A DNA stretch of 64,000 bases from Chiloscyllium plagiosum (Eukaryota), in contig NC_057751.1 of the NCBI RefSeq assembly GCF_004010195.1, positions 15,793,677 to 15,857,676 on the forward strand. The letters are read 5' to 3'. The notes under the pieces are model-generated. The model saw only the letters and a list, made by a program, of their open reading frames with translations, was not told where the DNA came from and searched no databases. Positions 2,778-58,155 of the stretch are shown piece after piece. Numbering within the stretch: the stretch's first letter is position 1; each line of letters opens with the position of its first letter. The position numbers were made by a program, and so were the translations under genes.

Positions 2778-2985
2778 GGAGAAAGTGAGGACTGCAGATG
2801 CTGGAGATCAGAGTTGAGAGTATGGTGCTGGAAAAGCACAGCAGGTCAGGCAGCATCTGAGGAGCAGGAGAATCGACGTTTCGGGCATAAGCTCTTCATT
2901 AGGAATGAGGCCTCATTCTGAAACGTCAATTCTCCTGCTCCTCGGATGCTGCCTGGCCTGCTGTGCTTTTCCAGCACTCACTCTC
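2778..2985. mobile_element. Penelope-derived fold-back element (family A)
   Basis: GAGAAAGTGAGGACTGCAGATGCTGG start, inverted arms, mutated hammerhead core (CTAATGA) on minus. Confidence 0.8.
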
Positions 2986-3036
2986 TGGACACAAGAGCAT
3001 TTGCATCAAACTCTTCTCAAGCAACTGTGATCAAAA

Positions 3037-3350
3037 CGGCACGGTGGCTCAGTGGTTAGCACTGCTGCCTCACAGCACAGGGTCCCAGGTTCAATTTCCC
3101 ACCTCGGGTGAGTGTCTGTGTGGAGTTTGCACATTCTCCCCGTGTCTGCGTGGATTTCCTCCGGGTGCTCCGGTTTCCTCCCACCGTCCAAAAATGTGCG
3201 GGTTAGGGTGAATTGGCCATGCTAAATTGCCCGTAGTGTTAGATGAAGGGGTAAATGTAGGATAATGGGTCTGGGTGGGTTGCACTTCGGCGGGTCGGTG
3301 TGGACTTGTTGGGCTGAAGGGCCTGTTTCCACACTGTAAGTAATCTAATT
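3037..3350 (+). mobile_element. tRNA-derived SINE
   Basis: A and B boxes and tail. Further copies at about 9081-9369(-), 11155-11490(-), 12735-13165(-), 21149-21445(+), 22423-22650(+), 25292-25603(-), 25777-26325(-), 50890-51140(-), 52217-52435(-), 56570-56830(-). Confidence 0.88.
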
Positions 3351-3609
3351 TAAACAAAAACTGTGTTCCCCATCTTGTACGTATCAACAGTAAAGCTCTG
3401 ATAAGGCCACAAGTGGAGCACAATGCCCAATTCTGATCTCTGCACTTCAGGAAGGACGTGAGAGTCCTCAACATGGTGCAGACGGGGATGGACCAGAATG
3501 GTTCCGGGGTGAATGATTTTTGCCACAGGCTTCTGTTGGAGAAGCCTGGGGTGTTGTCCTTGAAGTGAAGGCGATTGAGGGGGGATTTGGACAAGATTCT
3601 GACACGTTC

Positions 3610-4085
3610 AGATATTGAGTGATACAGCACAGAAACAGATCCTTCGGTCCAACCAGTCCAGGCTGACCATAATGCCAAACAAAGCTAGTCCCGTCTGCCT
3701 GCGCTTGGATCATGCCCCTCCAAACATGTCTTATTCCTGTACTTATCCAAATATGTTTTAAACGTTGTAAGTGTACCTGCATCCACCACTTCCTCTGGAA
3801 GTTCATTCCACACACAAATTACTCAGTGTGTAAAAAAGGTTGCCCCTCGTGTCCTTTTTCAAATCTTTCACCTTTCACCTCAAAAATATGCCACCTTGTC
3901 TTGAAATCCCTAACCAAAGGGACCACCCACCAAAACCTCTCAAAGGTGACGCCTCAACCTCCTGCATTCCAGTGAAAAAGTCCCAGTGTCTCCAGCCTCT
4001 CCTCATCACTCAAACCCTCATTCCCGGCAACATCCTAGTCAATCTTTTCTGCACCCTCTCCAGCATAATAATAGCCTTCCTTGAG
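3610..4085 (-). mobile_element. CR1 LINE 3' fragment
   Basis: ERVQKRLTRMLPG and CR1 3' UTR. Confidence 0.85.
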
Positions 4086-4292
4086 CAGGTGGGAGGCGGA
4101 GAAGTATTGTTCCCATCACGTGATGATGCAGAGCTTATTTGGGAGACATGGATTTCATATTTTGGGCAAGAGATAGAAGGGGAGGACGTACGATCAAACT
4201 TTTTTCCACAGCGAGTGGTAATGAGCTGGAACTCACAGCCCATGAGCAAGGAGGAAGCAGAGATAATGAATGACTCCAACATAAAATCAGAC

Positions 4293-4446
4293 TTAAAAAT
4301 CACACAACACCAGGTTATAGTCCAATAGGTTTAATTGGAAGCACTAGCTTTCAGAGTGCTTCCAATGAAACCTGTTGGACTATAATCTGGTGTTGTGTGA
4401 TTTTTATCTTTGTGCACCCCAGTCCAACACCGGCACCTCCAAATCA
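4293..4446. mobile_element. Penelope-derived fold-back element (family B) with TSD
   Basis: Inverted copies of the tail seen at 61048-61146; CATAAAATCAGAC repeated at 4280-4292 and 4445-4457. Confidence 0.85.
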
Positions 4447-4711
4447 TAAAATCAGACAGGTGCTTGAGGGAAATAAACTGCAGGGAGGAGTAGGGCAATG
4501 GGACTGACTGGATTTCTGTTCCGGACTGACAATATGACCCTCTGCCCTTTTTTAGCTCCACGAGCTGGACTGAAGTCCGGCCCAATTATAGGAACTATGA
4601 GTCTTTTCTTTCTCGCAATCATCAAGAGTCCACCACAAGGTGCTTGCCTGTGCCATGTTTAACTCCTGCGGACATTTCGGTCAGATTTCTCAGAAGGAGT
4701 GAAACACCTAC

Positions 4712-6944: not shown

Positions 6945-7215
6945 CCACACCACCCTGTGGCCGACCACTTCAACTCCCCTCCTCCCACTCTGCCAAGGGC
7001 ATGCGAGTCCTGGGCCTCCTCCATCGCCAAATCCTAGCCACCCAACGCCAGGAGGAAGAACGTCTCACCTTCCGCGCTGGGACCCTCCAATCACACGGTA
7101 TCAATGTCGACTTCACTATTCTCCTGTTCCTTCGATACTGCCTGACCCTGCTGTACTTTTCCAGTGCCATACTTTTCGACTCTGATCTCCAGCATCTGCA
7201 GTCCTCACTTTCTCC
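6945..7215 (+). mobile_element. Penelope-like fragment: GIY-YIG C-terminus joined to the family-A tail
   Basis: HPVADHFNSP / MRVLGLLHRQILATQRQEEERLTFRAGTLQSHGINVDFT, then ATTCTCCTGTTCC...CAGTCCTCACTTTCTCC. Confidence 0.8.
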
Positions 7216-9020: not shown

Positions 9021-9579
9021 TGGCATGGGTTTCCTCCCCAATCCAAAGATGTACAGATTACGTGGACTGGTCATGTTCAATTAGATTAGTTGATTAGATT
9101 CCCTACAGTGTAGAAAGAGGCCCTTCAGCCCAACAGTCCACACCGACCCTCCGAGGAGTAACCCACTTGGAGCCATTCCCAGAATAACGCACCTAACACT
9201 ATGGGCAATTTCGCACAGCCAATTCACCTGACCTGCACATCTTTGGAGTGTGGGAGGAAACCGGAGCACCCAAGGGGAACGTGCAAACTTCACACAGACA
9301 GTCGCCCAAGGCTGGAATCGAACCTGGGTGCTATGAGACAGCAGTGCTTACCACTGAGCCACCATGCTGTCCAGAGATGTGCAGGCTAGGTGGGTTGGCC
9401 ATGGGAAATGCAGGGTTATTGGGTGGGGGGGGAGTGGATATGAATGGGCTGCTCTTTGGAGGGTCCGACGGGCTGAATGGCCTGTTTCCACACCGTAGGG
9501 ATTCTATGATTCTATGAAATGCACTGCAAAGATAAATAAATGCAAAATACCAACAGCAACCCAGGACTGCAAGACTCAC

Positions 9580-12394: not shown

Positions 12395-13484
12395 GTGAGT
12401 TTCCCACGATCCCGTTTCCATCCCACACCCACACTCACAGGTCACACAGGGTGAGGGTTAGTGCAACTGTGCACAGAGCTGCAGTGATACCTGCCCATGG
12501 AGAGGCTGCTTGTGTGAAAGAGTTGATGCACTGGTTATGGTATTAACCCTTGAAGGAGTTTAAAATCAGAGAGGTAAAACCCGGAGGTCTGTGTTCAGCT
12601 ATTTAATGCCAATCTGGCCATCACTGGGGTGAAAGGGGTTACGTGATGAAGACTTGCATAGCCTGGTTTGTGTTTCCTTTCATATGGGAGACCTAAAAGG
12701 GGCAATCTGCTAACATTTGACAAACTACAATCGTAAAATCCCTAGAGTGTGGAAACAGGCCATTTGGCCCTTTGAGTACAGACCGCACCTCTGACCAGCA
12801 TCTCACCCAGCATTCCTGGTGAAGGGCTTATGCCCGAAACATCGATTCTCCTGCTCCTCAAATGCAGCCTGACCTGCTGTGCTTTTCCAGCACCACACTG
12901 TTGACTCTCACCCAGACCCACCATATTACCCCAACTCTAACCCTGCATGTCCCATGACTAACCCATCTAACCTGCGCATCGCTGGACAATGTGAGCATTA
13001 TAACCTGGCCAATCCACCCGAACCTGCACATTTTGGGACTGTGGGAGGAAACCAGAGCACCCACAGGAAACCCATACAGACACTTGGAGAATGTGCAAAC
13101 TCCACACAGACAGCCACCCAAGGGTGGAATCAAACCCGAGTCCCTGGCGCTAACCACTGAGCAACAGTGCTGTCTGATCTAGTCAGGAGTGTTCACAGAT
13201 GACCAAAAGGGTTTGATTGGATAGATCGAGAGCTGATGCCCACGCCACTTGGCTGCAATGGGGAATCAGCTTGATGTATCCGATATTGAGGCAATAATGT
13301 GGAGGAGTGTTAGCCAGACAGCCAAAGCGGATGGATGGTATAGCTTAGACACAGAACGGGAATGAAATCAGGTTTCTCATCAGCAAAACGCTGCACTGTC
13401 AGGACAGGGTCCCACAGGGTTTGGGATTCAGGAATGTTGCCGAGCTCTTGATGAAGTCATTGTTTGTGTTTATTCTCTCCACAG

Positions 13485-16079: not shown

Positions 16080-16149
16080 AGGAGATAGTGAGGGCTACAG
16101 GTGCTGGAGATCAGAGTCGAAGAGTGTGGTGCTGGAAAACACCCGTCGA
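16080..16149 (-). mobile_element. Very short family-A insertion with 15-bp TSD
   Basis: Family-A terminus between CTTTGTGAGATTGTG repeats at 16065-16079 and 16150-16164. Confidence 0.75.
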
Positions 16150-17123: not shown

Positions 17124-17342
17124 TCAAGGAGAAAGTGAGGGCTGCAGATGCTGGAGATCAGAGCTGAAAATGTGTTGCTGGAAAAGCGCAGCAGGTCAGG
17201 CAGCATCCAAGGAACAGGAGAATCGACGTTTCGGTCATAAGCCCTTCTTCAGGAATGAGGAAGGGCTTATGCCCGAAACGTCGATTCTCCTGCTCCTTGG
17301 ATGCTGCCTGACCTGCTGCGCTTTTCCAGCAACACATTTTCA
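17124..17342. mobile_element. Penelope-derived fold-back element (family A) with TSD, inserted in a CR1 fragment
   Basis: 83-bp inverted arms 17165-17247 and 17260-17342 (2 mismatches); direct repeat TCACCCCTCAACCT at 17110-17123 and 17340-17353; hammerhead core at 17225-17252 (-). Confidence 0.85.
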
Positions 17343-18066
17343 CCCCTCAACCTCCTGTGTTCCAGTGAGAAAAATTCCAGCCTATCTGCCCTCTCCTTAT
17401 AACTCCGATCCTCTAGTCCTGGCAACGTGTTGGTAAATATTTTCTGAACCCTTTCTTGGGAGTCATGATGGGGGTGGAGAGAATGGCAGGGAAGGGATGT
17501 TGCTTGAGAGAGTGTAGGGGCACAATGTACACTCTGACCTGATGCGCCCAGTGTTTGACATTAGATATCCATCCAATCCGTGTCTCTCATTATCTCACAT
17601 ACTTCTCTGAGGTCACCCCTCAGCCTCCAACGCTCTAGCGATAGCAATCCAAGTTTGTCTAACTTCTCCTCGTAGCAAATACGCTCCAATCCAGGCAACA
17701 TCTTTGTAAATAGTTCGACCCTTTCTGAAACATCAAATGATAAATTGGCTTTCTGAAAATGTTGATGCAGTCGTGATGTCTCGTTCTGTAGAACGTATCA
17801 ACCAACTAAATGACACGGTGAAATTGGGCCTTTTAATTGGATTTATTGTCCAAACTGACATGGCTGCAATGTCGATCTTGATTCAGTGAGACTGTGCATT
17901 CTCAATTACCTTATACTTTCCATTGTATGTTAAAATTAGGACTAAGAATAGATCATTCAGCCCAGCGAGCTTCCTTTGACATACACCACTATTATGTCTA
18001 ATTTGATAGTGGCTGCAACTTCACTTTCCTCTGTAGTATCCCCCCCAGTAATCATCAGCTCTATTC

Positions 18067-18094
18067 CTGATGAAGGGCTTTTCCCCGAAACGTT
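18067..18094 (+). ncRNA. Hammerhead ribozyme core (family A, diverged)
   Basis: CTGATGA-A-GGG-CTTTTC-CCC-GAAAC-GTT, followed by the family-A tail to about 18150. Confidence 0.5.
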
Positions 18095-18550
18095 TATTTT
18101 CCTGCTTCTCGGGTGCTGTCTGACCTGCTGTGCATTTCCAGCACCACTCTAAACTACAGAATAATATTAGCAGACTTCACGACAGACTGATGAATCAGTA
18201 CACGGGACAGAAACAGACCATTCGGCCCTTCTGATTTGTGCCAGTATTTATGAACCCTCCTGTCTGCTGCTTCATCACACTCCGTCAGCAGACCCTTCTA
18301 TTCATTTCTGCCTCTTGCACTAATCTATTTTCCCTGTCAAAGTTATTCACGGTGTTTCGGTGGGTTCCACAGACTGAGCATAGGTTTCTCCTGACTTAGC
18401 TATTGGGCTTATTAATGACCGTCGTTTATGAAGGACCCTGACACTCTGCTTCGGCCTACACCTCCTTGCATGTCCTGCTGCCCGTGGCTACTGCGTTGGA
18501 GCCTCGCTTTCCGAGTCGGTAATAACGCACATTGTTTTCTAATCGAGCAG

Positions 18551-22969: not shown

Positions 22970-23143
22970 GAGAAAGTGAGGATTGCAGATGCTGGGGATC
23001 AGAGCTTAAAAATGTGTTGCTGGAAAAGTGCAGCAGGTCAGGCAGCATCAAAGGAGAAGGAGAATCGACGTTTCGGGCATAAGCCCTTCTTCCTGGACTT
23101 ATGCCCAAAACGTCGATTCTCCTTCTCCTTTGATGCTGCCTGA
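22970..23143. mobile_element. Penelope-derived fold-back element (family A) with TSD
   Basis: Inverted arms of the family-A tail; direct repeat TGATCTTGTAATG at 22957-22969 and 23141-23153. Confidence 0.85.
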
Positions 23144-23602: not shown

Positions 23603-23604
23603 AG

Positions 23605-24364: not shown

Positions 24365-24787
24365 GTAAGTGGTTGCCTCGGGTACACGGAGGGCTATGCG
24401 CTAACAGAACGATAAAGGCTTAACACTGTGCCGAACTCTCTACATCCAACAAAGCATGTGTGGTGAAATTCGGATCTCCGATGGGCAAAATTCTTCCTTT
24501 GATCCCTATTCCATCTTCGCCTCCTTCACGTCTCCCAATGCCCCATTCCAACCTGACACCCATTCCCAGCGACGCTAGCACAGAAGGTACAGGCAGTGGT
24601 GTGTTACACCTCGCTGAAGGAGTCAGTGTGTTTCAGTGGCAACACTCATTGTTACATGCCTGCAGCTTTGGATGTTTATTTCCCTCAGCTGCCTCCCACT
24701 GTTGTACTGCCAGCCGTTGACAGATGTTGGAAGGATTTGCGGGTCGATGTTTGACATGTTTGGCCCCACCATGAACACAGTTCGAGA

Positions 24788-24968
24788 CAAAGAAACTGCA
24801 GATTCTGGAATCGAAGCGAGACAAGCAGGAAGCTGAAAGAACAGAGCAAGCCAAGCAGCCTCCGGAGGTGGAGAAGTCAACCTTTCTTTGGGTATAATCC
24901 TCGTTAACTTCTCCACCTCCTGATGCTGCCTGACTTGCTGTGTTCTTCCAGTCTCCTGTTTGTCTACC
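24788..24968. mobile_element. Older fold-back element related to family A
   Basis: Inverted arms AGACAAGCAGGAAGCTGAAAGAAC...GAAGTCAAC and GTTAACTTCTCC...CTGTTTGTCT. Confidence 0.6.
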
Positions 24969-26515
24969 TGTCATGAACACCGCTTCAAGTCAAGCTCCAA
25001 TCTGGAGCTCCCGGCCCAGAGGCTGGGACTCTACCACTGCTCAACAAGGCCTCCCAAGTATGTGGTACCAAATAATGTGCCCAACAGGGAAGGCAGGAGA
25101 ACACTTTCAGTCCAGACAAGGGAGGGAATGTGGCACTTGCTGCATAATTCCATCAAATAATTGGAGCTGCGAGTCAAAAACCTTAAAATTCACTCCGATA
25201 ATCACAAAAAAAGCCATGTTTTGCTTTGCCAAGGAAATCCTTTGCGTCCTCATGCAATCTCCCCAAGTTGGCGGTGAAGGAGATGACATCAGTAGATTAG
25301 ATTCCCTACAGTGTGGAAACAGGCCCTTCGGCCCAACCAGTCCACACCGACCCTCCGAAGAGTAACCCACCCAGACCCATTTCCCTCTGACTAATGCACC
25401 GGACTAATGGGCCATTTAGCACGGCCAATTCCCCCTAACCTGCACATCTTTGGACTGTGGGAGGAAACCGGAGCATCTGGAGGAAACCCACACAGACACG
25501 GGGAGAATGGGCAAACTCCACACAGACAGTCGCCCAAGGCTGGAATTGAACCTGGGACCCTGGTGCTGTGAGGCAGCAGTGCTAACCACTGAGCGACCGT
25601 CCCGCCTCAATGTAAAGAAAACTGATGTAAAAGCACGAAGGAGACTGGAATGCAAACCTTTGGTCATAAGATGAGATGAGGAAGGGTGGGAAGAGATTTC
25701 CCTGGCACTGGCATCGACTTGATGGGCCCACAGGCCATTTCTGTGCTTTAAATACAGTGTAATGTTCCCTGATGAGAATCATAGAATCCCTACAGTATGG
25801 AGGCGCGTCATTTGGACTATCGAGTCCACGCCGACCCTCTGAAGACCATCTCACCCAGACCCAACCTCCCCCAACTCTGTCCCTATAACCCCGCATTTCC
25901 CATTGCTAACCACATCCCTTAGCACTACGGGGCAATTTAGCACGGCCAATCCACCCTAACCTGCACATCCCTTGGCACTATGGGTAATTCAGCACGGCCA
26001 ATCCACCCCAACCTGTACATCCCTCGGCACTATGGGTAATACAGCACGGCCAATCCACCCCAACCTGCACATCCCTCGGCACTATGGGTAATTCAGCACG
26101 GCCAATCCACCCTAACCTGCACATCCCTGAGCACTATGGGTAATTCAGCATAGCCAATCCACCCTAACCTGCACATCTTTGGACTTTGGGAGGAAGCACC
26201 TGAGGGCAACCCACGCAGACACAGGGGGACAATGTGCAAACTCCGCACAGACAGTCACCCCCTGAGGGTGGAATCGAACCTGGGTCCCTGCCGCTGTGAG
26301 ACACTGAACCACTGTGCCTGCCCCACAGGTCGCTGAAAAAGCCTACGTTCGCCTGAGGGCAACAAAAAGTGTTAGTGGAATCTGGCTCACCTTCGTTTCT
26401 TGCTTCCTCCCGGCACTTGCAAAGCACGGCCAAAGGATCCAACTGCACATGATGCTTGCAGACAGTCATTGGGGGCGGGGGGCACTAATCTCTCCCGGTC
26501 TCCGTGTCGTTGCAG

Positions 26516-35165: not shown

Positions 35166-35491
35166 AGATGGAAATGTGTTGCTGGAAAAGCGCAGCAGGT
35201 CAGGCAGCATCCAGGGAACAGGAGAATCGACGTTTCGGGCATTAGCCCTTCTTCAGGAATGAGGACAGTTTGTCCAGCAGGCTAAGATAAAAGATAGGGA
35301 GGAGGGACTTGGGGGAGGGGCGTCGGAAATGTGATAGGTGGAAAGAGGTCAAGGTGAGGGTGATAGGTCAGACTGGGGTGGGGGCGGAGAGGTCGGGAAG
35401 AAGATTGCAGGTTAGGAAGGCGGTGCTGAATTTGATGGATTTGACTGAGACAGGCTGGGGGGAGGGGAAATGAGAAAACTGGTGAAAACTG
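35166..35491 (-). mobile_element. Penelope-like 3' segment (pyrimidine-rich UTR, hammerhead, family-A tail)
   Basis: C-rich UTR leading into an intact hammerhead core and the tail; GTGCTTTCCG repeated at 35156-35165 and 35492-35501. Confidence 0.75.
35229..35256 (-). ncRNA. Minimal type-I hammerhead ribozyme core (Penelope-associated, family A)
   Basis: Minus strand reads CTGAAGA-A-GGGC-TAAT-GCCC-GAAAC-GTC: intact CUGANGA and GAAA boxes, perfect 4-bp stem II, ACGT palindrome as helix III. Stem I is weak. Confidence 0.7.
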
Positions 35492-35678: not shown

Positions 35679-36682
35679 CTGTGACAGAACACCACCGCAG
35701 CACTGTTACAAAGAGCTCAAACAGTAGGGGAACCCAACTGGTCAGTGCTGGCCCACAGGAGCCTCAACGCGTTCGGTCCCTTTCTCCCCCACAACTTTAT
35801 CCGGCTGCAATGCAGCCAAGTTTGAGATGACGCATTTGGGGAGGAAGACAATCAAAAGATAGGTCTAAAGTAGGGGGTCCAATTCGAAAGGGGAAGCAAC
35901 GGCAGAGGGACTTGGGGGTACATGTGCACAGATTATCAAAGGAGGCAGGAGAGTAAACAGAGCAATTAATGAAGCCTATAGTGTCCTCAGCTTTATTAAC
36001 AGGGCCACAGAGTACAAGAGCAGGGAGGTGATGTTGAACTGGTACTTGTCAGACCTCAGCTGGACTACTATGGCTCGAGGCACCACACTACAGGGAAGCT
36101 GTGAAGGCACTGAAGAGATTGCAGAAGCAATTTCCCCAGAACAGTTCCAGGGATGGAGAATTTTGGTTATGAGGACAGACTGAAGAAGTTTGGAGTATTC
36201 TCCTTGGGAGAGAAGAAGACAAAGAGGGGATCTGATAAAGCATTCAAAATGACGAGGGTGCTGGATTGAGAGGGAGAAATCATTCCCACCCGTAGAAGGA
36301 ACAAGGTCGAGAGGGCAATGCTTTTGAGTGCTTTTGCAAAAGAAGCAAATGTCAGACAAGTTTTTTTTACACACCGAGTAGTTTGGAATTTACCCGGAAA
36401 TGCAGTGTAGACAGAATCAATTGAGACGTCAAGAGGGCATTGGAGGATTATCTGGATAGAAATAATGCATAAGGGTATGGGGGTGGGGGAGGGGAGAACG
36501 CAGGAAATTGGCAGGAGGTAACAATGCACATTTGAAATGCAGATTCAATGGGCCGAATGGCTTCCTCCTGAGCTCTAACAATTCTTAATTCTCCTGTGAT
36601 TCACTTTAACTGAATCGCTGCTATTCCCCTCAGCCACTCCACGTGTCCCAAGTTTAACTGAATCCCTTCTTGGTGAGACGAA

Positions 36683-36880
36683 GGTGTGGTGCTGGAAAAG
36701 CGCAGCAGGTCAGGCAGCATCTGAGGAGCAGGAGAATCGACGTTTCGGGCATAAGCACTTCATCAGGAATGCTGAAACGTGGACTCTCCTGCTCCTCGGA
36801 TGCTGCCTGACCTGCTGTGCTTTTCCAGCACCACACTCTCCACTCTGATCTCCACCATCTGCAATCCTCACTTTTTTCCC
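36683..36880. mobile_element. Penelope-derived fold-back element (family A)
   Basis: Inverted arms at about 36685-36746 and 36774-36836 around a hammerhead core. Confidence 0.8.
36739..36766 (-). ncRNA. Hammerhead ribozyme core (family A)
   Basis: CTGATGA-A-GTGC-TTAT-GCCC-GAAAC-GTC; one stem II mismatch. Confidence 0.6.
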
Positions 36881-39044: not shown

Positions 39045-39347
39045 TCAAAGTTTGTGAGAAGATTTGTAGCTCAAGTGCTCGTTGTTGTGGTTCTGTTCGC
39101 CGAGCTGGGAATTTGTGTTGCAGACGTTTCCTCCCCTGTCAAGGTGACATCCTCGGTGCTTGGGAGCCTCCTGCAAAGGACAGCTGGAACTGACAACCGG
39201 AAGCGGCAGATTCAAACCACTACAAATGCCGGAGGAAACATCACAGAAGCGCTTCACAGGAGGCTCCCAAGCACTGAGGATGTCACCCAGACAGGGGACG
39301 AAATGTCTGCAATACAAATTCCCAGCTCGGCGAACAGAACCACAACA
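39045..39347. mobile_element. Fold-back element (family C) with hammerhead motifs and TSD, inserted in CR1 ORF2
   Basis: 91-bp inverted arms 39083-39173 and 39257-39347; AGGAATATTTGT repeated at 39033-39044 and 39347-39358. Confidence 0.85.
39271..39310 (+). ncRNA. Hammerhead ribozyme motif (family C)
   Basis: GCA-CTGAGGA-T-GTC...GAC-GAAA-TGTC-TGC; stem I GCA/TGC and stem II GTC/GAC pair. The sister copy in the opposite arm keeps GAAACGTC. Confidence 0.65.
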
Positions 39348-42829: not shown

Positions 42830-43025
42830 AAGTCAGAAACAGCTGGAGAAGCTCAGCGGATCGAGCAGCAGTCTGTGGAGAGAGAAAGCAGAGTCAACAT
42901 ATTGGGTCCAGTGGTCCTTCTTTGGAAGGTTGACTCTGCCTTCTCTCCACGGATGCTGCCAGACCTGCTGAGTTTCTCCAGCTATTGCTGCCAATGTTTT
43001 GGATTTCCAGCACCTGCACTTGTTT
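42830..43025. mobile_element. Older fold-back element related to family A
   Basis: Inverted arms at about 42840-42898 and 42929-42983 (GCTGGAGAAGCTCAGC.../...GCTGAGTTTCTCCAGC). Confidence 0.6.
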
Positions 43026-44768: not shown

Positions 44769-45394
44769 CTGTCAAACAGAAAAGCAGCATTATTTATCTT
44801 GCAGGGGACAACTTGAAACTACACAAAGCTGGACATGTGAACAAAACTGTCCATCCTGCGCTCAGTAGGACAAATGCAAGAAGGCCAAATTTCAAACCAT
44901 CACAACTACTTATGGTGCAGGACGAAGGATGCTGATTGGCCAAGGCCATGCCATGGAGAAACGCCAAGTTCCTCAGCGTTGTGTCCTCAGCCCAACCATC
45001 TTCAGCTGCTTATTCAATCACCTTCGCGTCACAGGTCAGAAGTGAGAATGTTTGGAAATGTTCAGCACCATTCGCAACTCCTCAGATACTCTATCAGTCC
45101 ATGTCAATTTGCAGCAATACCCTGAACAACAATTAAGTTTGGGATGACCAATGGTAAGGAACCAGTGGTAAGTGCCAGGAAATGACCATCTCCAACATGA
45201 TAGAATCTGACCATCACTCTTTATCATTCAATGGCATTACCATCAATGAATACTCCATTATCAACATCCTGCAAGTTACTATTGACCAATAGCTGAACTG
45301 GGCCAGCCATATAAATACTTTGGTTACAGGCTGGAAATCCTGCAGCAAGTAATTCACCTCTGATTCCCCAAAGCCTATCCCCACCATCCATAAG

Positions 45395-46089: not shown

Positions 46090-47194
46090 ATAAGGCACAA
46101 GTCAGGAGTGTGATGGAATACTTCCCACATTTCCAGGTAAGTGCAGCTCCAACAACACTCAAGAGGCTTGAGACCATCCAGGACAAAAGCAGCCTGTTTG
46201 ATTTGCACCACATTCACAAACATCTCTCTCTCCACTACTGATACGCAGCAGCAGCAATGTGTACCACCCAGAAGATGTACTGCAGCAATGTACCTAGGCT
46301 CCTTTGAAAGCACCTTCTAAAACAACAGTTTCTATCTCAAAGGATAAGGACAGCAGGTACATGGGGCACCGCCACCTACAAATTCCCCTCCACGCCACTC
46401 ATCATCCTGACTGGGAAATAGAGCAACATTCCTTCACTGGCATTGGGTCAAAATCCTGGGAACTCCCTCCTTAATGGCACTGTGGGTGCACCCCCACCGC
46501 ACGGACTGCAGTAGTTCAAGAAGGCAACTCACCAGCACATTCCTAAGGGTGGATAATAAATGCTGGCCGTCCAGCAATGCCCGCATTCCATGAGTTTACA
46601 AGATTACTGATAAGGCCCAGGGAGTAATATGAATTCCAACGTGTACACTGACTGGGGAAGTAATCCAATGTGGTCAAGTAATCCACGACCTCCAGGGTTG
46701 CTCGAGAAATATTGATATTATTTTCATGAGCACGGATAAAAGCTGGAAATGCGGGAGCCAGGTTTACACCTAGCCGGACTCTGCTATTTGTGAACAAGTG
46801 GAGCTGGAACAGACAAGCCAAGCCTTGGAGAGTCAACTTCCCGTCAAAACCAGATAGGCCTGGTCCTACCTGATGAGGTGCTAACGGCCACACTGTTTCA
46901 GAATGAATCATTCTTTCCACCTCCAATCAACCTGCTTTGTTAGATTCATGTTACCCAGACTTGTGGCACCCACCTCAGTAGGCAAAAACGCGACAAGGAA
47001 CAGCTGAAGGTTCAAAACCATGTTCTGTGACCTCAAGGTACTGAAATTAATCACCTCATTGGATCTTCCTGCCCCCGCCTGATTGGACAGTATTGGACAC
47101 AAGCCACAGAATTGCCGAGAAGGTGTGAAGAGGTGTGAAGAGGACAATCTGGAGATCCACTTTGCTCTGCTTTGACACCCTCAAGACCGTTGGG

Positions 47195-47391
47195 CAGAAG
47201 TGGGTACTGCAGATGCTGGAAATCAGAGTCGAGATTAGAGTGGCGCTGGAATAGCACAGCAGGTCAGGCAGCAACCGAGAAGAAGGAAAATCAATGCTTC
47301 GGGCAAAGGCTTTTGCCCGAAGCGTTGATTTTCCTGCTCCTTGGGTGCGGCCTGACCTGCTGTGCTTTTCCAGCACCACTCTAATCTCGAC
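47195..47391. mobile_element. Penelope-derived fold-back element (family A)
   Basis: Palindrome centred on the stem-II sequence (CTTCGGGCAAAGGCTTTTGCCCGAAG); ACCCTCAAGAC repeated at 47177-47187 and 47390-47400. Confidence 0.8.
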
Positions 47392-49490: not shown

Positions 49491-49941
49491 GTTGCCTTGA
49501 ACCACACTCACTCCAGGGAGAGGGAATGCACCAACAAGATGGCCTACCTCTACACAGGTTCGGAGAAGCCCATACAGGTATGGAATCCAGCAGAGACAGG
49601 GGTTTAAGGAATCAGAGGAAGAAAACTCCAAGTCAAATCCATTCAAATTTGTTCTCCGTGACTGAGACAGGGAAGGCTGTTCAGACATTACTTGGAAAAC
49701 CCTGCAGCAGTTAGACTCAATAAACCTTTCCAGTTTGCAACAGCTTGACAGTCCTGTTGTTGTCTTACCCCGAGTACTTAAATCCTCACTCGCCAACAAC
49801 CATCTCAATCAAATTTCAAAGGGTCTCGTGCAGGGGTGAGCCAGTTGCAAGTTTGCACCACACTGGCCCCTCTCTGCCACCAGTTACACAGCCAAGGTGG
49901 TTGCCACTCAGCTCCTGCAGTGGCAAGGGAAATCTCCTTAC

Positions 49942-50070
49942 CTCGTCGAAGATAGGGTTGTTACCCCGTTTGATTCTGGTCCGGAAAACGGTGTCGCCTA
50001 CGTAGACCTTCACCACGGGCCGGATGTTGGCACCCTGCAGCTGACGGCCCTCAATAATCCGGACTCGAAC
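49942..50070 (-). CDS. Ferlin exon 7 equivalent (C2B)
   Basis: 129 nt; VRVRIIEGRQLQGANIRPVVKVYVGDTVFRTRIKRGNNPIFDE. Confidence 0.97.
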
Positions 50071-51385
50071 CTGATAAAGAAACATCGCAGAGAAGGAGGA
50101 GGCAGCCAGTCAGCCCCTTGTGCTCGCCAATCCCACTCCCCTGCTCTGTACCCACACAATAATGTCATTTATTTTCCTCTCTTAATTTTGCCTCATGAAA
50201 CGGATTCATTTTGCGGAGATTTGAATGAGTCTGTTTCCCCCCACTGCCCTTTCAACCAGTGCGTGACAACTCGCTGCGAGAAATATTTCCTTACATTCTC
50301 TCCTCAACTCCATCTCCTCTGGTCTCTGGTGACCAACTCTCCCGCCAGTGGGAAATGTTTCTTCCACATCCATGCATTTTCGATCAGAGATCCCTAGTTT
50401 TGAAATACTCCGCTCCCCCCCACCCCCACCCACCTCCCCCCAACTCCCCGCCCCCACCCCGACCCCAACCGGGTCTAGATACACCCATGCGGAATAATGT
50501 GCTCTCAGCATGCAGCCTGTCACCCTCCCTCAGAATCTGACAGGTTTCAATCAGATCGCCTCTTGTATTTTAAACCCCAATGGGTACAGGCCTAACCCTA
50601 CCAGGTAGGATCACTCCCTGTGTTCCAGGAATCAGCCAAGTGAACCTTCTCTGGACTTCTTTCTGTGCAACAATATTCCTTCTTCAGTAAAGAGAACCGA
50701 ACTGTACACAGTTCTCCGGATGTGGTCTCACTACTCCCTGTACAGCTGTAGCAACCTGCTATCAAACTCCAGAATGGGCCAAACTGGATTGTCTGATTGA
50801 CAGGGTGAATATTCGCCAAGAAAACTGCAAAGAGTAATTTGCTCTTTGTTCAACAGTGTAATGGCATGCTGACGAACTAGGTGTTCATAGATCATATAAC
50901 CCATACAGTATGGAAGCAGACCGTTCTGCCTACCGAGTTCACACTGATCCCACCCCTGTAATTCCCATTGCCAATCGACCTAACCTGCAACTTCTTTGGG
51001 CTGTGGGAGGAAACTAGAGCAACCGGAGGAAACCCACAGTGGAGAATGCGCAAACTCCATGCAGACAGTCGCCCAAAGGTGAAATCGAACCCAGGACCCT
51101 GGCGCTGTGAGGCAGCAGTGCTAACCACTGATCCACCATTTAACACCCTCGATACAAGGCTCTTGTGTGCAGCTAAATAATCCAAGTCTTACCTTTCCAT
51201 CTCATCTTTTTCTCTCCCAACTGACTAAACAAGGGAAGTGCAGCAACTGCATTGCTCCCATCTTGAGTCAGGTCCGATATAACCTGCACAGTGCCTTAGG
51301 TCATTGGGCCTAGGCCTGACATATGCCCTGAACCTTGTGCCCCCCCCATCCCCATGTCTGACCACCATCCTACTACCGCGTTTAC

Positions 51386-51540
51386 CTGGAAGTCCTGTGG
51401 TTTATCAGAAACTTTCTGCGCGAACTTGGCAGTTCCCCTAACGGAGGCATTTTCTGGCGATGGTGATTGAGACCTCAGTGGGATCTCCTGTAATCTGGGA
51501 ACATTAATGGTGTCATCCTGTTCTGGATGGCCTGGCTTCC
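51386..51540 (-). CDS. Ferlin exon 6 equivalent (C2A-C2B linker)
   Basis: 155 nt, AG/GT; KPGHPEQDDTINVPRLQEIPLRSQSPSPENASVRGTAKFAQKVSDKPQDFQ, ending in the conserved KPQDFQ. Confidence 0.9.
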
Positions 51541-53570
51541 CTGAGAGGGAAACAGATCAAATCGCGTCGACACAGTGTACTGTACATACAAATACATGCA
51601 AAACAGGCGCAAACACACACACCCGCCCAAGGAAAGGTGAATCACACACACAAGAAACCATGTTAAATGGAGATGGGGAAGCAGGAGAGGGAGGGGATAT
51701 AGTCACAGCCACACGGTCTCCACAGGATTGATGCCCGGGAAGGACACACATTTAAGAGCAACAGAGGCTTTCTTCTCTCCAGCTTTGCCTGTCAGCTCAC
51801 CCAGTCAGAAGGCAGTTAAAATACTGTAAAAGGGCAGACTAAACATCGACTGGGTGAGCATCTTGCAGAACATTTCCAATTCAGTCGGAAGGCAGTACTC
51901 CAGTGGCCTGTCACTTCAATTCTCACCCTTGTTCTCCACACTGACATCTCTGTCCTTGGCTCTCTGCAGTGTCCCAGTGAAGCTCAGCATTTGCTTGAGG
52001 AGCAGCGCCTCATTATTCAATGAGGCACCTCCGCCACCCAACCCCACTCACTCCAACCCTAGCTTTGCGCAAAGCCTATTACGTTGCTGTTTGTGCAGAC
52101 CTGAAGTATTAATTCTGCTCCTCTCTCTGTCCCTGTCTCCCAAAACCGATGCTCCCTGACCCACCAAGTCTTACCACAATTTCCAGTTTCTATTCAGTTT
52201 AAGGGCTCGCCTGTGTTTAGATTAGATTCCCTACAGTGTGGAAACAGGCCCTTTGGCCCAACAAGTCCACACCGACCCTCCGAAGAGCAACCCACCCAGA
52301 CCCATTCCCTATATTGAACCCTGACTAATGCACCTAACACTTTGGGCAATTTAGCATGGCCAAATCACCTGACCTGCACACCTTTGGATTGTGGGAGGAA
52401 ACCGGAGCACCCGGAGGAAGCCCACGCAGACACAGTCAAGGAATAGAACGCTTTTGCATTCAAGACAACCTGCAACGAGGGATACCTGGGGAGGTACAGC
52501 ATGGTCAGATGGAGAGGAAAGATCCCTTGAAGTCTTGTGGCACAGTGGATAGTGACTCCCTGAACGAGGCAAAAGTTAACAGCTTGAGTGCTACCCAGGT
52601 CACGGAAGGCAAGGCAAGCGTGCTCATAACACAAACAAAACATGCAGCAATCTACAAATGCTTCCAACGCATGCTGGTGGCAAGGGATAGGAGCGGGACA
52701 CACACACACACACACAATGAGGCCATTCAGCCCCTTGCACCCATACTGGCACTCAGTAAGATCACAGATTATCTGCATCCACCTTGCCTCAACAGCCCTT
52801 ACTACCCTCAACTGATCGTGGATGTCAAGTTATTCACTGAGATAGCATCCCCTTGTTTTTCACGGGAGGGAGCTTGGCACTTTGGCCATCCCTTTCTCTT
52901 CTGAACGGCCTGGCACTGATTTCAAGGTTGCGTTCCCTGGGTCCTCGACACCTCCCACCAGTGGGGAAAGTTTGTGAACCCGATCAATCCCTTCTGCAGT
53001 CCTGGCAGAGTCTCTGGTGAACATTTCTGGTGAACATAAGGCTCTCTCTGCTCTCCATTCGAGCCAGGGTTGTGTATTGCTGTAACCGTAAGAAACAGGA
53101 ACAATTTCAATATGAAAATGACATTCCAGATCCGCTTTCCCGTAATCCTAGATTCCCTAGCAAAGCTCCCTCTCTCCTGTAACCTGGAATTATGAGTATT
53201 TTTTTCCATTGTGTTTTCTTGATTTGCTTTAGTGTGTGGCTTTGAGCTTTGCATTGATCTGTGTACATGGAGACAGATAGGGCATTCCTTTGGCATCTGA
53301 TGACTCAGCCTCTCTGTGGGCCTGTAAAACCACTTTGTTCACCTCCATTTGCAACACTTGGATCTGTCCCCTTTGTGGTCCCACCTCACACTTACCGGCT
53401 GTGAAATCCATTCGCTGCAGCTTCCAGTCACTGGATCCAGTCTCATTTACCTCCACAACGTTAGGTAGCTCTCACTACCATATTGCCGAGCTGACTGTGA
53501 CAGTCCCGTGTTTGCGACTGCTCAACACAAGACCCACGCAGAAAGACAATTCGCACAGCGGCCCACTTAC

Positions 53571-53634: not shown

Positions 53635-54265
53635 CTGCAAACGAAACACATAAATCCCTAAACAAAGCTGTCTTCCCGTTGTAACACCGCCGTCCTCCCC
53701 AAAACAAACAGCTTGACCAACTCAGGCACCCTGAATCATCCCTCTTCGTGCCCATGGCCTGCGCAAAATTGGTGTTTCACAGGAGCATAGGAGATCGGAG
53801 CAGGAGTGAGGCCTTAAGAGTTAGGAGCACAGATCTCGATTAAACAAGGACGTTTTCTTGTTAAAAAGAGCACCTGCAAGGGGAAGAGGGTGGCAGACTG
53901 GCAGTGAGGTCGAGGGACGGAACTCAAGATGTTAGGGACCAGGCAGCTGCAGGCATGGCCACCGATGGTGGGTGACGAAGTTCAAAGGCTGGAAACTGGG
54001 GGAGCTCAGAGATCTCAGAAGGTGGCAACAAGTTACAGAAACAGGGCAAGACAAGAGCATGCAGGGATTTCAATTTTAAATCCGCATTTTCTGGATCGCA
54101 AGCCAATAAAAGCCTGAAGACATAGGGCAATAAGCAAATGGGACTCAGTCCCAATTCGGATCCAAGCTGCCAATTTTTGGCAGAGCGCAGATTTGCAATG
54201 GGCATAATCTAGGAATACAGGCAGGAGCGAGATCAGTCAGCTCTGCGTCTCCATAGAAACATCAC

Positions 54266-54374
54266 CTTCGTTTTTTGCTTCTTCTTATCCAGCAGAGGGA
54301 CTTTGACAAAAGATATATTTCTGCTCCTCTCCCCAACTAGATTGGCGAGCCGGACATTGACGGATCCTAGGAAC
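54266..54374 (-). CDS. Ferlin exon 4 equivalent (C2A)
   Basis: 109 nt, AG/GT; FLGSVNVRLANLVGERSRNISFVKVPLLDKKKQKTK. Confidence 0.9.
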
Positions 54375-55153
54375 CTATAGAGGACGAGTGAGATCAAATC
54401 CAGTTACAACAGACTATCACTAAATGCAGTGGTATCACACATCCACTTAGCAAACTTCATCATTGGCAACTTAAAACAGAAACCAAGTTTACATTCAAGG
54501 GTGGGGGAGGCAAAGGGTTACAGGTTCATAAATCATAAAGCACAGGAGACTGTTCAGTCCACTGGAAGATGGTCTTGGGTTTGGAAAATGCTGAATCTTA
54601 TAGACAGCACAACAAGCAGTGAACACAATGTGCTGCTGAACGCCAAATTCCAACATACACCCTCCTGCTCCTTGGGAATCAGTTCAGAGGAGGTTTACTG
54701 GATTCATCCCTGGAATTAGCAGGTTGACTTGTGAGGAAGGTTAGACAGGCTGGACTTGCTTTCAGCACAGTTCAGAGCTGAGTTCCAGAGGTGAGGTTAG
54801 AGTGACTGCCCTTGACATGAAGGCCACATTTGACCGAGTGTTGTATCAAGGAGCCCTGGCAAAACTGGAATCAATGGGCATCGGGGGGCAAACTCTCCAC
54901 TGGTTGGAGTCATACTTGACATATAAGAAGGTGATTGTGGTAGTTGGAGGTCAGTCATCTTAGCTCAAGGACATCTCTGCAGGAGTTCCTCAGGGTAGTG
55001 CCCTAGGCTCAACCACCTTCAGCTGCTTTAGCAATGACCTTCCCTCTGTCGTAAGGTCCGAAGTGGGGATGTTCGCCAATGATTGCACAAGTTTCAGCAT
55101 TATTTGCAGATCCTGAAGCAGTCCGTTGTTCAAACGCAACAAGACCGGGACCG

Positions 55154-55483
55154 TGGGCGGCACGGTGGCACAGTGGTTAGCACTGCTGCCTCACAGCGCC
55201 AGAGACCCGGGTTCAATTCCCGCCTCAGGCGACTGACTGTGTGGAGTTTGCACGTTCTTCCCGTGTCTGCGTGGGTTTCCTCCGGGTGCTCCGGTTTCCT
55301 CCCACAGTCCAAAGATGTGCAGGGTCAGGTGAATTGGCCATACTAAATTGCCCGTAGTGTTAGATAAGGGGTAAATGTAGGGGTATGGGTGGATTTCGCT
55401 TCGGCGGGTCGGTGTGGACTTGTTGGGCCGAAGGGCCTGTTTCCACACTGTAATCTAATCTAATCTAATCTAATCTAATCTAA
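55154..55483 (+). mobile_element. tRNA-derived SINE, young full-length copy
   Basis: Near-identical to 63282-63601; (TAATC)6 tail. Confidence 0.9.
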
Positions 55484-55508
55484 CATCCAGGTTTGGCCTG
55501 ATGAGTAG

Positions 55509-55701
55509 GAGAAAGTGAGAACGACAGATGCTGGAGATCAAAGTTGAGAAAGTGGTGCGAGAAAAGCACTGCGGGACATCCGAGGAGCAGGAGAATTGAT
55601 GTTTCATTCCCGGTGAAGGGCTTATGGCTGAAACATCGATTCTCCTGGCCCTCGGATGCTGCCTGACCTGCTGTTGTTTTCCAGCACCACACTCTCGATT
55701 C
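55509..55701. mobile_element. Penelope-derived fold-back element (family A), diverged, inserted in a LINE
   Basis: Inverted arms; 16-bp imperfect direct repeat at 55493-55508 and 55702-55717 (2 mismatches). Confidence 0.75.
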
Positions 55702-58155
55702 TTGGGCTGATAAGTAGCAAGCAACATTCCTGCCATACAAATGCTAGGCAATGACCATCTCCAATAAGAGACAATCTGATCACTGCCCCTTGACATTCAA
55801 TGTCACCATCACTGAATCGCCCACTATCCGTGGACTCGAAACCCCACCGGACTCACCATATTAACATAGTGCAATAAGAGCAGGTCAGAGACGAAGAATC
55901 TTGCAGCGAGTAACCCACATCCTGACTCCCCAAAGCCTGTCCACTATGTACACGGAGTGTGATAGAAAACTCCCCACATCTGGATGAGTGCAGCTCCAAC
56001 AACACTCAAGGAACTTGACACCATTCAGGGCAAAGCAGCCCGTCTGATTGTCCCCACATCCACAAACATCCACTCCCTCCAACCCCATCGACACTCAGTA
56101 GTAGCAGTGTGTCTTATCTACAAGATGCAATTTACCGAAGATCTTTAGGCAGCACCTTCCAAACCCATGACCACTTCCATCTAAGAAGGACAAGGGCTGC
56201 AGGTACATGGGAACACCACCTCCTGCAAGTTCCCCTCTGAGCCACTCCCCGCCTGCGACTTTCAAACATATTGGCCGTTCCTTCAGTGTCCAAGTTAGGG
56301 GTTGCAAATTTCAGGATAGAGATGAGGAGGTTTTGTTTTGTCTGTCAGAGGGTTGAGTATCGTTGGAACTCTCTGCCTCAGACAGCAGTGGAGGCAGGGT
56401 CACTGAATCTTGTTAAGGAGTGTGTGGATAGATTCTTGTTAGGCAAGGAAATGAAGGCTCTTTGGGAATAGAGAGGAAAGTGAAATTCGAGATGCAAACA
56501 GACCAGCCACAATCTTATTGGATGGTGGAGCAGATTCGAGGGGCCAAATGGCCTAATTCTGTTCACAATCCCAACAGCGTGAAAGCAGCTCATTCAACTC
56601 ATCGAATCCACATTGACCCTCTGAAGAGCATTCCTTCCAGCCTCAACCCCAACCCTATCCCTGTTATCCTGCAATTCCCCACGGCCAATCCACCTAACCT
56701 GCCCATCTTTGGACTGTGGGAGGAAACCCATACAGACACGGGAGAACGTGCAAACTCTACACAGACAGTTCCCCGAGGGTGGAATCGGACCTGCGTCTCT
56801 GGTGCTGTGTGGCAGCAGTGCTACTGACTTTGGTGTCTCCCTAACTACCAGAGCCACTCCTTATTTTGGAGACAGGGAGGAACGGCACCCATAGGCTGAC
56901 AGATGAAGAACTAGAGGGCACAGATTGAGGTCAAACGGCCGACAAACTGGAAGAGAAATGTTTTGACGTGGCGAGGGATTATGATCTGCAATGCACTGCC
57001 TGAACTTTCCCATCTAATCTTTCTTCCTCCTGTACAGACCTCAGAGGTCAGTGCATGGTATAAGTCTTCAATACTGGGTATCAAGACAATCAGCATGTGC
57101 GGTGCTTCCCAGCAGCTGTAATGGTGTCAGGGGAACGTTGCTCCCAGAGGGAGGTGGACACTGGCTCAAAGTTGGCTTTCCAAAGGGAACTGGATGGATT
57201 CTCAGAACACAAAGGAAGTGCAGGGCTGTGGGGAAAGCGGACTGAAGTGAATCGTTCCTTAAAGGGGACCTGATGAACCGAATGGCCTCACATTATATCT
57301 ATCCAAGGAGAATGGAGATGCTGCCCCAAGTCTTCAGAATGGCCTTGGTGAAGTGGGCTGGGAATCGTACAGCCGCAGAAACAAGCTATGGCTCACCATG
57401 GAAACGGCGAAGGTTCACTAGATTGGTCCCTGAGAGAGGGGGCTGTCTTAGGATGAGAGACTGTGAAAGCTGTGTCTTCCCCAGAGTTGAGAAAAATGAG
57501 AGATGATTCCAATGAGACACGCAGATTTTGAAGGGGCTTGACAGAGTGGACACAGAGATTGTTGGCTGGGGGACCTTGAAGAGACAGAACGAGGGGCTGA
57601 TCGTTTCAGATCGAGGTGAGGAGAAATGCCTTCACACATGGGAGTTGTGAACCTTGGGAATTCTCAGCTCCGGGATGCAAGGCTTTTCAGGAAGGTTCTC
57701 CTGGGGAATCCGGGGTATTTGGGGAGCAGACGGAAACGTGGAGTTGGAGTCGGAAACCAGCCACGATGGAGGGAGATGGCAGAGCAGGCTCAAGGGGCCA
57801 AATGACCTCCTTCTGCTGCTGCTGCTGTGTTGTACAGTAACTGGTCTGTGCCAACGCTCCACACAAGCCTTCTCTCTCTCCACTTCATCTCACCTTAGCA
57901 GTGCATCCTTCTGATTCTCACACTTGCACCCTCTCTCTCTCTCCTCACACAAACTCTGCAAGTGACCCACTGTTCAAAACATGGAGATGAGAGTCTGGTA
58001 AACAACTGCGACTGTGCTTGGAAGCAGCTGCCAGCAGTGATTTTCCTCCGGGTGTTAAATTTTTATTTTAAATAATTTACTGACGGTTTTCGTCCTGAAT
58101 CCCCCCCCATTGACGTGGGGCGACTGTTCCTTCACAAAGCACAGAATAAGGTTAC

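Follow-up and report, generated by a model that had tools for sequence, protein, structure and literature searches.

The short palindromic elements dispersed through a 64,000-nucleotide stretch of the Chiloscyllium plagiosum genome (the window: NCBI RefSeq assembly GCF_004010195.1, contig NC_057751.1, positions 15,793,677 to 15,857,676) are very probably ordinary insertion stubs of Penelope-like elements (PLEs), formed with no part played by ribozyme cleavage. With rather less assurance, we think it probable that these fold-backs are head-to-head 5′-truncated Penelope-like ends from three families, that each arose from two cDNAs and that the hammerhead is likely a passenger.

Fold-backs and their families

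The ten fold-backs of a preliminary description were all recovered, eight as inverted repeats of 52–96 nt with 84–95% complementarity in an inverted-repeat search and two (42830 and 55509) by blastn, at 73% and 70%. Their lengths (152–302 bp) agree with the 150–300 bp first given, while their density (10 per 62,670 non-N bases, or one per 6.3 kb) is somewhat lower than the suggested one per 5 kb; with solo copies included, the window holds 17 stubs. As proposed, the setting is intronic: minus-strand ferlin exons match myoferlin/dysferlin at 1349, 4813 and 54376 (the last weakly, E 0.06), and nine fold-backs sit between these matches; 55509 is probably intronic too, because it lies upstream of the exon encoding residues ~83–119.

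The ten had been read as inverted duplications of one short tail. They belong instead to three unrelated families: F1, with eight fold-backs (2778, 17124, 22970, 36683, 47195, 55509 and the diverged 24788 and 42830), F2 (39045) and F3 (4293). F2 and F3 queries gave no blastn match to any F1 copy in the window. Arm positions below are numbered from the hammerhead cut site, with nucleotide 17 as −1 and the tail side positive.

Fold-back 2778 (2778..2985) has a tailed left arm (−36..+97) and a right arm from −36 to +58 in which some 20 nt, comprising core and stem II, are missing; G5 of the element is mutated, its centre is a perfect 16-bp palindrome and its target duplication is weak (5 bp). In 17124 (17127..17339), the tailed left arm (−38..+98) holds the intact minus-strand core at 17225–17252 and overlaps the right arm (−23..+57) by 3 nt, within a 14-bp target duplication. 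The arms of 22970 (22970..23140; left −26..+97 with tail, right −20..+26) are separated by 2 nt and flanked by a 13-bp duplication; 47195 (47192..47389; left −15..+101 with tail, right about −21..+63) has a duplication of 11 bp, and 55509 (55509..55701; left −9..+89 with tail, right −34..+64 with a mutated core) one of 16 bp with two mismatches. The non-nested 36683 (36675..36876) carries its intact minus-strand core (36739–36766) in the left arm (−36..+64) and its tail on the right (−8..+95), with a 12-bp duplication containing one mismatch. The diverged F1-type elements are 24788 (24787..24971; left about −20..+91 with tail, right −4..+66; duplication 9 bp) and 42830 (42831..43023; left about −30..+65, right about −8..+91 with tail), the latter with a decayed core and a weak duplication (13 bp, two mismatches). 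The Poseidon-like F2 element 39045 (39045..39346; left −56..+78 with tail, right −130..+39) has a right arm that starts inside an ORF end, a plus-strand core at 39274–39307 and a 12-bp duplication. F3 is represented by 4293 (4293..4444; left −12..+52, right −1..+89 with tail), between duplications of 13 bp (4280–4292 / 4445–4457).

Solo F1 copies were also present. Alone among the F1 copies of the window, the minus-strand one at 35166..35491 extends far upstream, to about −263; it has an intact core (35229–35256) and a 10-bp target duplication. On the plus strand, 18063..18155 runs from about −32 with a core at 18067–18094 and without a convincing duplication, 12811..12905 starts at −33 directly after a 10-bp duplication and has a mutated A6, and 7118..7215 runs from about +2 with a tail and without a ribozyme core. 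A 70-bp minus-strand stub (16080..16149; +36..+98) lacks a ribozyme and has 15-bp target duplications on both sides, and a diverged F1-type minus-strand fragment lies at 61636..61688 (about +7..+50). The stubs at 12811, 7118 and 16080 were absent from the preliminary description. Finally, a 5′-truncated Penelope-like remnant on the plus strand (60232..61145), within a 9-bp duplication (60223–60231 / 61146–61154), comprises in order an endonuclease-domain ORF end (60240–60611), a CA-rich UTR, a 263-N gap and an F3 end with tail.

Hammerhead cores and Penelope-like identity

A minimal-hammerhead descriptor of our own design found five sites in the window, identical to those of the preliminary description (17225–17252 −, 36739–36766 −, 39274–39307 +, 35229–35256 − and 18067–18094 +), and 200 dinucleotide shuffles gave two matches in all (0.01 per window), which upholds their identity as hammerheads. 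At all five, CUGANGA, GAAA and UH occur in order, stem II is closed by G10.1–C11.1 and an extra base follows A9. The GAAAC-GTC reported for these cores holds except in 39274, which reads GAAAT-GTC, and in 18067, which reads GAAAC-GTT and has its first stem I pair broken. Helix III is palindromic (15.1–16.1; ACGU in F1 and F2, with AUGU in 39274, and AGCU in F3). Stem II of F1 has 4 bp, and helix I, with 4–5 bp expected, pairs at three of four positions in F1, leaving a U-U mismatch, and has 3 bp in F2. Rfam returned no hammerhead family among 17 matches with E up to 10.

These core features are the same as those of the pLTR hammerheads of metazoan PLEs, which the available part of PMC4209133 describes as minimal type I motifs with an extra base between 9 and 10.1, G10.1–C11.1 and a palindromic 15.2–16.2; the F1 motif departs from them in its 4-bp stem II, its U-U mismatch in stem I and the absence of compensatory change in 12 cores. 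The same part reports mostly single motifs in truncated copies, with opposite-strand pairs 100–700 bp apart, and does not name sharks among the hosts.

Neither excess conservation of the core nor stem covariation, the two checks put forward at the outset, was found. Changes number 7/123 in the core and 57/736 downstream (p 0.58), so that cores decay like their flanks; across 12 F1-type cores (24788 left out), none of nine stem pairs had changed on both sides, in a sample of few decayed copies that tests the copies and not the active parent. The copies decay neutrally after insertion. Folding of three of the ten elements predicted a single hairpin spanning the whole element (−137 to −202 kcal/mol), and a second arm in a transcript would sequester the ribozyme.

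The proposed Penelope origin is borne out by target duplications, one-sided tails, head-to-head arms and, for F2 and F3, ORF ends. Target duplications of 9–15 bp score at least 9 in eight of the ten fold-backs; random flank pairs reached a score of 9 in 4/288 cases and 10 in 0/288. An inverted 5′-truncated copy is joined head to head in all ten, and exactly one arm of each bears the tail, which adds 25–41 nt in nine elements and 71 nt in the tenth (boundaries by hand). In translation, the upstream arm of F2 (39045) matches the C-terminal end of shark ORFs (three matches, best E 8e-16), among them P0041 and P0043, the latter carrying a precomputed RVT_1 domain. The F3 end also closes the remnant described above, in which the piece of ORF shares 91% identity with shark proteins, and the F3 relative P0004 has an RVT_1 match (E 5e-9). 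The link from F3 to this ORF spans the 263-N gap. We take the ORF end to be of GIY-YIG type from its motif, by eye; neither Pfam nor NCBIfam matched the window's ORF piece to GIY-YIG. No ORF was tied to F1, for which one 41-aa frame was searched without a match in either of two databases, and no full-length partial-tandem unit (pLTR-ORF-pLTR) occurs in the window. A Cys-rich linker between reverse transcriptase and endonuclease is present in Neptune and absent in Poseidon, according to the accessible part of PMC8557442; on this motif, C-X4-C-X2-C is found in P0004 (F3 relative) and is absent from P0043 (F2 relative).

The insertion pattern is already described for Penelope-like elements: in what we have of PMC8557442 and PMC3846280, endonuclease-positive insertions consist of a pLTR, an adjacent inverted 5′-truncated copy and a one-sided 30–40-bp tail. 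Head-to-head inversion, a tail on one arm, target duplications of about 8–15 bp and strong 5′ truncation are common to both. Here, by contrast, the whole unit consists of two truncated ends (150–300 bp) at a density of about one in 6 kb, and the 5′ ends of F1 accumulate 32–38 nt upstream of the cut site; neither dense two-end stubs nor such a pile-up was found in those portions of the two papers.

Junctions, the cut site and routes to the palindrome

As noticed earlier, the inversion point falls in or beside the ribozyme, and does so in nine of the ten fold-backs, whose arms all start between −38 and −1. The exception is 39045, with arm starts at −56 and −130; each of its arms holds the whole motif region, and its junction lies outside the ribozyme. 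In short elements with fixed 3′ ends, junctions must fall near the motif. All ten junctions differ and nine are asymmetric. Neither arm lies within the other in six elements (five clearly, 47195 by 4–7 nt), so a simple snap-back fails; this proportion fits the 50:50 expectation for independent cDNAs. The scissile bond is crossed by 19 of 20 arms (in two by only 3–4 secure bases), and because these arms run unbroken through it the hammerhead likely rode along as a passenger rather than causing the fold-back.

Depth profiles from four sequencing runs, against one reference copy matched at 85% likeness, gave ratios across the cut-site bins of 0.92, 0.89, 1.00 and 0.91. Depth declines steadily across the motif (ratios of 0.80–0.89, then 0.64–0.73) and steps down in all four runs into the bin starting at −32 (0.49, 0.41, 0.26, 0.35), upstream of which a plateau persists at 3–18% of peak. 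Among those listed, loose ends at −31/−32 number 146–216 in three runs, with low agreement (0.31–0.41). Within the window, the starts of six out of 14 F1-type loci fall inside an 8-nt span (−32 to −38), and for five of the six a junction or target duplication fixes the position; the clustering of these hand-assigned ends is modest (P 0.001–0.11 depending on the null). The −32 step could also come from subfamilies differing upstream of −32, and contig depth is no copy number.

For the two-cDNA and run-off details, we incline, if only somewhat, towards the following sequence. Two cDNAs would be primed from the two target ends with uncut element RNA as template; both would stop near the RNA 5′ end and then be joined, in one insertion event. 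The junction would fall in the ribozyme because the ribozyme would form the last 40 nt of the copied template. The protein of PAc, a Penelope-like element of the Poseidon clade from the lizard Anolis carolinensis, nicks both target strands and extends them, initiates reverse transcription at two neighbouring internal sites that bound the tail and takes unprocessed RNA as its template, and F2 resembles PAc in having an ATG where stem II begins; head-to-head products and junctions are not described in the accessible part of that source (PMC11167929). The F2 arms end at −56/−130 and one F1 copy reaches −263, so a single template end would not serve all copies. The D. virilis start site precedes, by 46 bp, an intron of 75 bp (PMC2377424, in part), whose end the hammerhead abuts (PMC4209133); the start is thus about 120 nt from the hammerhead, not at its edge, which counts against a run-off start. 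The two-cDNA step draws on ten elements and a lizard enzyme in vitro, the window contributing target duplications, head-to-head arms, the one-sided tail, arms across the cut site, different junctions and core decay. L1 twin priming resembles it, in that both target ends prime cDNA and microhomology occurs at the inversion junction, but yields non-overlapping segments of one RNA, whereas the fold-back arms copy the same segment.

Given the same origin, reverse transcriptase might instead stall in a folded or protein-bound hammerhead, such stops setting the arm ends with no fixed RNA start. Three or four short arms, including those of 36683, 42830 and 55509, do begin on the 3′ side of stem II, at its foot (−8/−9), where the right-arm deletion of 2778 also ends, and the steady fall in depth over the motif would suit stalling. 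We nevertheless judge it unlikely: the largest step is at the motif's 5′ edge, where an enzyme moving 3′ to 5′ would already have unwound the motif, stem II has only 4 pairs, and in five of the seven strand-changing joints listed from contigs one of the two partners falls outside the ribozyme, at +16 to +26. The earlier suggestion that stem II seeds the fold-back is weak: it gains from the arms at −8/−9 and loses from the same joints, and none of the fold-back junctions links one stem II strand to another.

Less likely again is self-priming by a folded-back antisense RNA, a route put forward for rotifer elements, in which the palindrome precedes integration. Head-to-head repeats with junction palindromes are so interpreted in the portion of PMC3846280 at hand; this route can yield non-nested arms, the 16-bp palindrome of 2778 would fit it, and RNA reads of both orientations map to F1, though intronic copies explain these. 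It sits poorly with the asymmetry of nine of ten junctions and with the sense-RNA start sites that account for tail boundaries in vitro (PMC11167929, in part).

We think it distinctly improbable that the palindromes, or solo 95–130-nt units, form a non-autonomous family whose copies are themselves transcribed and inserted anew, in a retrozyme- or SINE-like manner. Abundance is very high (39,186–51,645 contigs aligned per DNA run, in two species), short copies are by depth about 6 to 30 times as numerous as long ones, the motif and the two presumed start sites all lie within a unit running from −33 to +98, and non-autonomous derivatives of Penelope-like elements are proposed in the part of 10.64898/2026.07.22.740005 available to us. 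The non-LTR retrozymes described there likewise have type I hammerheads, a PLE terminal-repeat origin and occurrence in a cartilaginous fish, but are defined by tandem units in head-to-tail order bearing at least two consecutive hammerheads, whereas copies here are single or head-to-head, and nowhere in the window do two copies lie side by side on the same strand. Furthermore, palindromic RNA buries the motif, cores decay and all ten junctions differ; the F2 arm begins in a reverse transcriptase ORF end and F3 also serves as the end of an endonuclease-bearing remnant, so that a separate family of non-autonomous derivatives, as first supposed, is not supported for the palindromes. This evidence excludes palindromes, not solo units. 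A self-propagating palindromic (MITE-like) family, which should share ends and centre, was rejected because the ten elements have ten different junctions and cores that decay like flanks.

The preliminary description held that self-cleavage makes an RNA end that seeds the fold-back. In nine of ten fold-backs the junction is no more than 38 nt from the cut site, among the 20 arms only the right arm of 4293 (start −1..+2) could have been copied from a cleaved template, and one listed joint, at +1/−33 in a single contig, fits such a template. This proposal is largely refuted and now seems very improbable, given the 19 arms that span the cut site, the missing depth step there in all four runs, stubs ending far from the motif (16080 at +36, 35229 at −263) and, in the accessible part of PMC11167929, catalytic mutants that leave in vitro insertion unchanged. 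Inverted duplications are a known artefact of long reads, but the chance that the fold-backs are assembly artefacts is negligible, since target duplications flank them, arms of one fold-back have diverged by 5–16% or more, tails are one-sided and strand-changing joints recur in contigs and reads of other runs (at other family loci, not these ten).

Penelope-like stubs as a possible record of integration

The fold-backs themselves are expected by-products; their value lies in their use as data. The origin of inverted repeats and tails in Penelope-like elements is called open in the parts of PMC8557442 and PMC11167929 available to us. With tens of thousands of such junctions per genome, two-ended priming, self-priming and stalling become separable by counting, and the nested/non-nested test and the missing cut-site step already speak against snap-back and against cleavage. 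It is conceivable, though we lean against it, that the stubs are a fossil record of integration, in which a protein dimer would prime both target ends, at the two internal start sites, on RNA starting just ahead of the hammerhead, a 95–130-nt run-off cDNA, akin to retroviral strong-stop DNA, would be the default product and two joined would give a palindrome, and the solo unit (start, ribozyme, priming sites) might be re-mobilised in trans as a mini-element flooding shark genomes. Long perfect intronic hairpins at this density would also be putative substrates for editing or small-RNA processing.

Fold-back elements, their anatomy and setting

All ten fold-back elements listed in the preliminary description (starting at 2778, 4293, 17124, 22970, 24788, 36683, 39045, 42830, 47195 and 55509) were present, eight recovered via an inverted-repeat search and two more via blastn, with lengths of 152–302 bp (n = 10). 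Our own minimal-hammerhead descriptor returned the same five sites in the window as those claimed as hammerhead cores, with a background of 2 matches in 200 shuffles; the core text GAAAC-GTC stood for three of the five cores, while the other two deviate from it. With E values allowed up to 10, Rfam returned 17 matches, none of them a hammerhead; its microRNA matches scored far under gathering thresholds and were rejected as hairpin artefacts. The claim that all ten elements share one tail proved wrong, as blastn revealed three families without cross-matches: F1 (eight elements, two diverged), F2 (39045) and F3 (4293). Missing from the original list were solo (single, non-fold-back) copies at 7118, 12811, 16080 and 61636 and a remnant at 60232–61145. 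Candidate copies from public collections (20 from metagenomes, seven from GTDB and one viral) were discarded as chance matches, all 28 aligning over just 19–27 nt.

In every fold-back the two inverted arms abut at their 5′ ends (10/10), and a 3′ extension, or tail, is confined to one arm (25–41 nt in nine elements, 71 nt in one). Target duplications scoring at least 9 flank eight of the ten elements, a score attained by 4 of 288 random flank pairs. According to PMC8557442 and PMC3846280, Penelope-like insertions comprise an inverted 5′-truncated copy plus a 30–40-bp tail, often one-ended, and the fold-backs in the window follow the same pattern. Penelope-like terminal repeats hold minimal hammerheads, mostly single and at times in opposite-strand pairs (PMC4209133).

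Positions below are numbered from the cleavage site, with hammerhead nucleotide 17 as -1 and the first base past the cut as +1. Both arms of 2778 begin at -36, giving a 16-bp perfect palindrome at its centre (2903–2927); its right arm lacks about 20 nt (core and stem II), the gap lying between two similar 4-mers. An F1 stub of 70 bp without a ribozyme (16080–16149) ends at +36 and is flanked by perfect 15-bp duplications; the shortest products are thus of a kind missed when searching for hairpins.

A ferlin gene (myoferlin/dysferlin-like) occupies 966–54403 on the minus strand, with exons near 1349, 4813, 9675, 26745, 50073 and 54376; its stop-free pieces match dysferlin and myoferlin (E 2e-10), with a weak match at 54236–54403 (E 0.06, residues about 83–119). 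Within the window, about 19 kb is self-repeated sequence, and a 300-bp SINE-like repeat with inverted pairs at 9027–9409 and 23253–23747 accounts for much of this. A tandem array with units of about 33 bp lies at 1728–2280, and LINE-type reverse transcriptase (RT) fragments at 58308–59607 on the minus strand (RVT_1, E 2e-18) and 39656–41329 on the plus strand (RVT_1, E 6e-4).

Ties to autonomous Penelope-like elements

The longer F2 arm begins at -130, within coding sequence, and aligns with the C-terminal ends of three shark proteins (among 23 candidates), one with RT and without a Cys linker; stem II begins with an ATG, like that of PAc, a Poseidon-type element of the lizard Anolis carolinensis (PMC11167929). 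A weak TIGR01453 match in P0043, an F2 protein relative, fell outside the motif and was set aside. For F3, a truncated Penelope-like remnant on the plus strand (60232–61145, with a 9-bp duplication at its borders) consists of the end of a putative endonuclease-domain ORF, a CA-rich UTR, a 263-N gap and, downstream of that gap, a second F3 end (61048–61145). For the ORF piece (60240–60557), 40 of 90 candidates proved to be relatives; the best of them, 87–91% identical, belong to Chiloscyllium and Hemiscyllium, and one relative carries RT and a Cys linker. The GIY-YIG label was assigned by eye, and neither the ORF piece nor P0004, an F3 protein relative, received an endonuclease label in searches of Pfam, NCBIfam and PDB. 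For F1, one 41-aa frame had no match in two protein searches; architecture and motif suggest that this family, too, is Penelope-like. Shark host-protein models P0011, P0017, P0022, P0030 and P0042 (septin, PPP1R12A, a GPCR, XRCC5 and NT5DC1) carry Penelope-like ORF ends, through either exonisation or annotation error.

Junctions, cleavage and the origin of the second arm

Junctions fall between -38 and -1 in nine of the ten elements, and cleavage had been proposed to seed the fold-back. That proposal was not supported. The cut site is traversed by 19 of 20 arms (two of these by just 3–4 secure bases), so the templates of those arms were uncut. Depth was compared along the long solo copy 35150–35450 in three DNA runs from two species, with 39,186–51,645 contigs apiece, and in one RNA run of 2,401 reads; contig depth does not equal copy number, and ratios over the cut-site bins were 0.89–1.00 in the four runs. 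Of 15 joints listed (21 further joints exist), seven change strand, with head-to-head sides of +26/-23, +19/-23, +18/-34, +18/-207, +16/-37, +1/-33 and -21/-32, and one of these seven lies at the cut. These data concur with PAc, whose insertion was unaltered by catalytic mutants (PMC11167929).

The depth ratio into the bin beginning at -32 was 0.26–0.49 (four runs), with a plateau upstream at 3–18% of peak, and this step may mark where the element RNA template starts, near -32 to -38, although subfamilies differing upstream of -32 would enlarge it. Six of 14 F1-type loci in the window begin within 8 nt in this region, five of them pinned by a junction or duplication; P for clustering was 0.001–0.11, varying by null. 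Directly ahead of the core on the minus strand stands TCATTCC (35256–35262, 2901–2908, 17252–17258), which we take to be initiator-like, with A at -32. Loose ends and joint inserts past 35260–35261 often start with C (sense G at -33), which may reflect either a G templated by the cap or a base specific to a subfamily. The single-cell poly(A) run (2,401 reads, both orientations) had no pile-up of ends, which such a library cannot show. The D. virilis transcript start lies about 120 nt from the hammerhead motif, unlike the -32 to -38 proposed here (PMC2377424, PMC4209133).

The tail arm is shorter at its 5′ end in six of ten elements (five clearly), each arm then having sequence absent from the other, and such non-nested arms must both derive from element RNA. 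We propose that two cDNAs would be made, one per nicked target strand and one per internal reverse-transcription start site, and joined via 0–3 nt of overlap or 1–2 added bases. Alternatively, antisense RNA may prime itself, as PMC3846280 suggests. Snap-back of a single cDNA with self-copying would make the second arm a subset of the first, and is rejected as a general route by the six non-nested elements. Subfamily-specific bases are common to both arms in 17124, 22970 and 47195; in 8/8 elements the two arms are more alike than an arm is, on average, to the other copies (marginally so in 55509), and in 6/8 at least one other copy matches equally well or better. An artefactual origin of the fold-backs was rejected.

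State of the ribozyme and significance

The junctions of all ten elements differ, and blastn found no tandem units in the window. The excess core conservation and stem covariation named as tests were not found: core changes numbered 7/123 cells versus 57/736 downstream (16 F1 arms, p 0.58), with compensatory changes at 0/9 pairs among 12 cores. A catalytic base is lost in about half of core-spanning arms. Whole-element folding of three elements gave one hairpin each (-137 to -202 kcal/mol) with the motif buried, and predicted monomer and dimer folds of five arms, which did not yield the active hammerhead, were set aside. Because the motif is predicted to be buried, catalytic bases are lost and opposite-strand arms cannot provide the tandem partner that minimal hammerheads require, the palindromes are likely dead on arrival; solo units may be re-mobilised.

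In mainly freely accessible literature we found no report of breakpoint clustering at the hammerhead, of such a 5′-end pile-up or of non-nested arms; the by-species motif alignments that accompany PMC4209133 may contain shark motifs. The fold-backs are real, non-random and mostly known, being shark representatives of already described structures, and the accumulation of 5′ ends immediately before the motif, together with the non-nested arms, provides a usable mechanistic lead.
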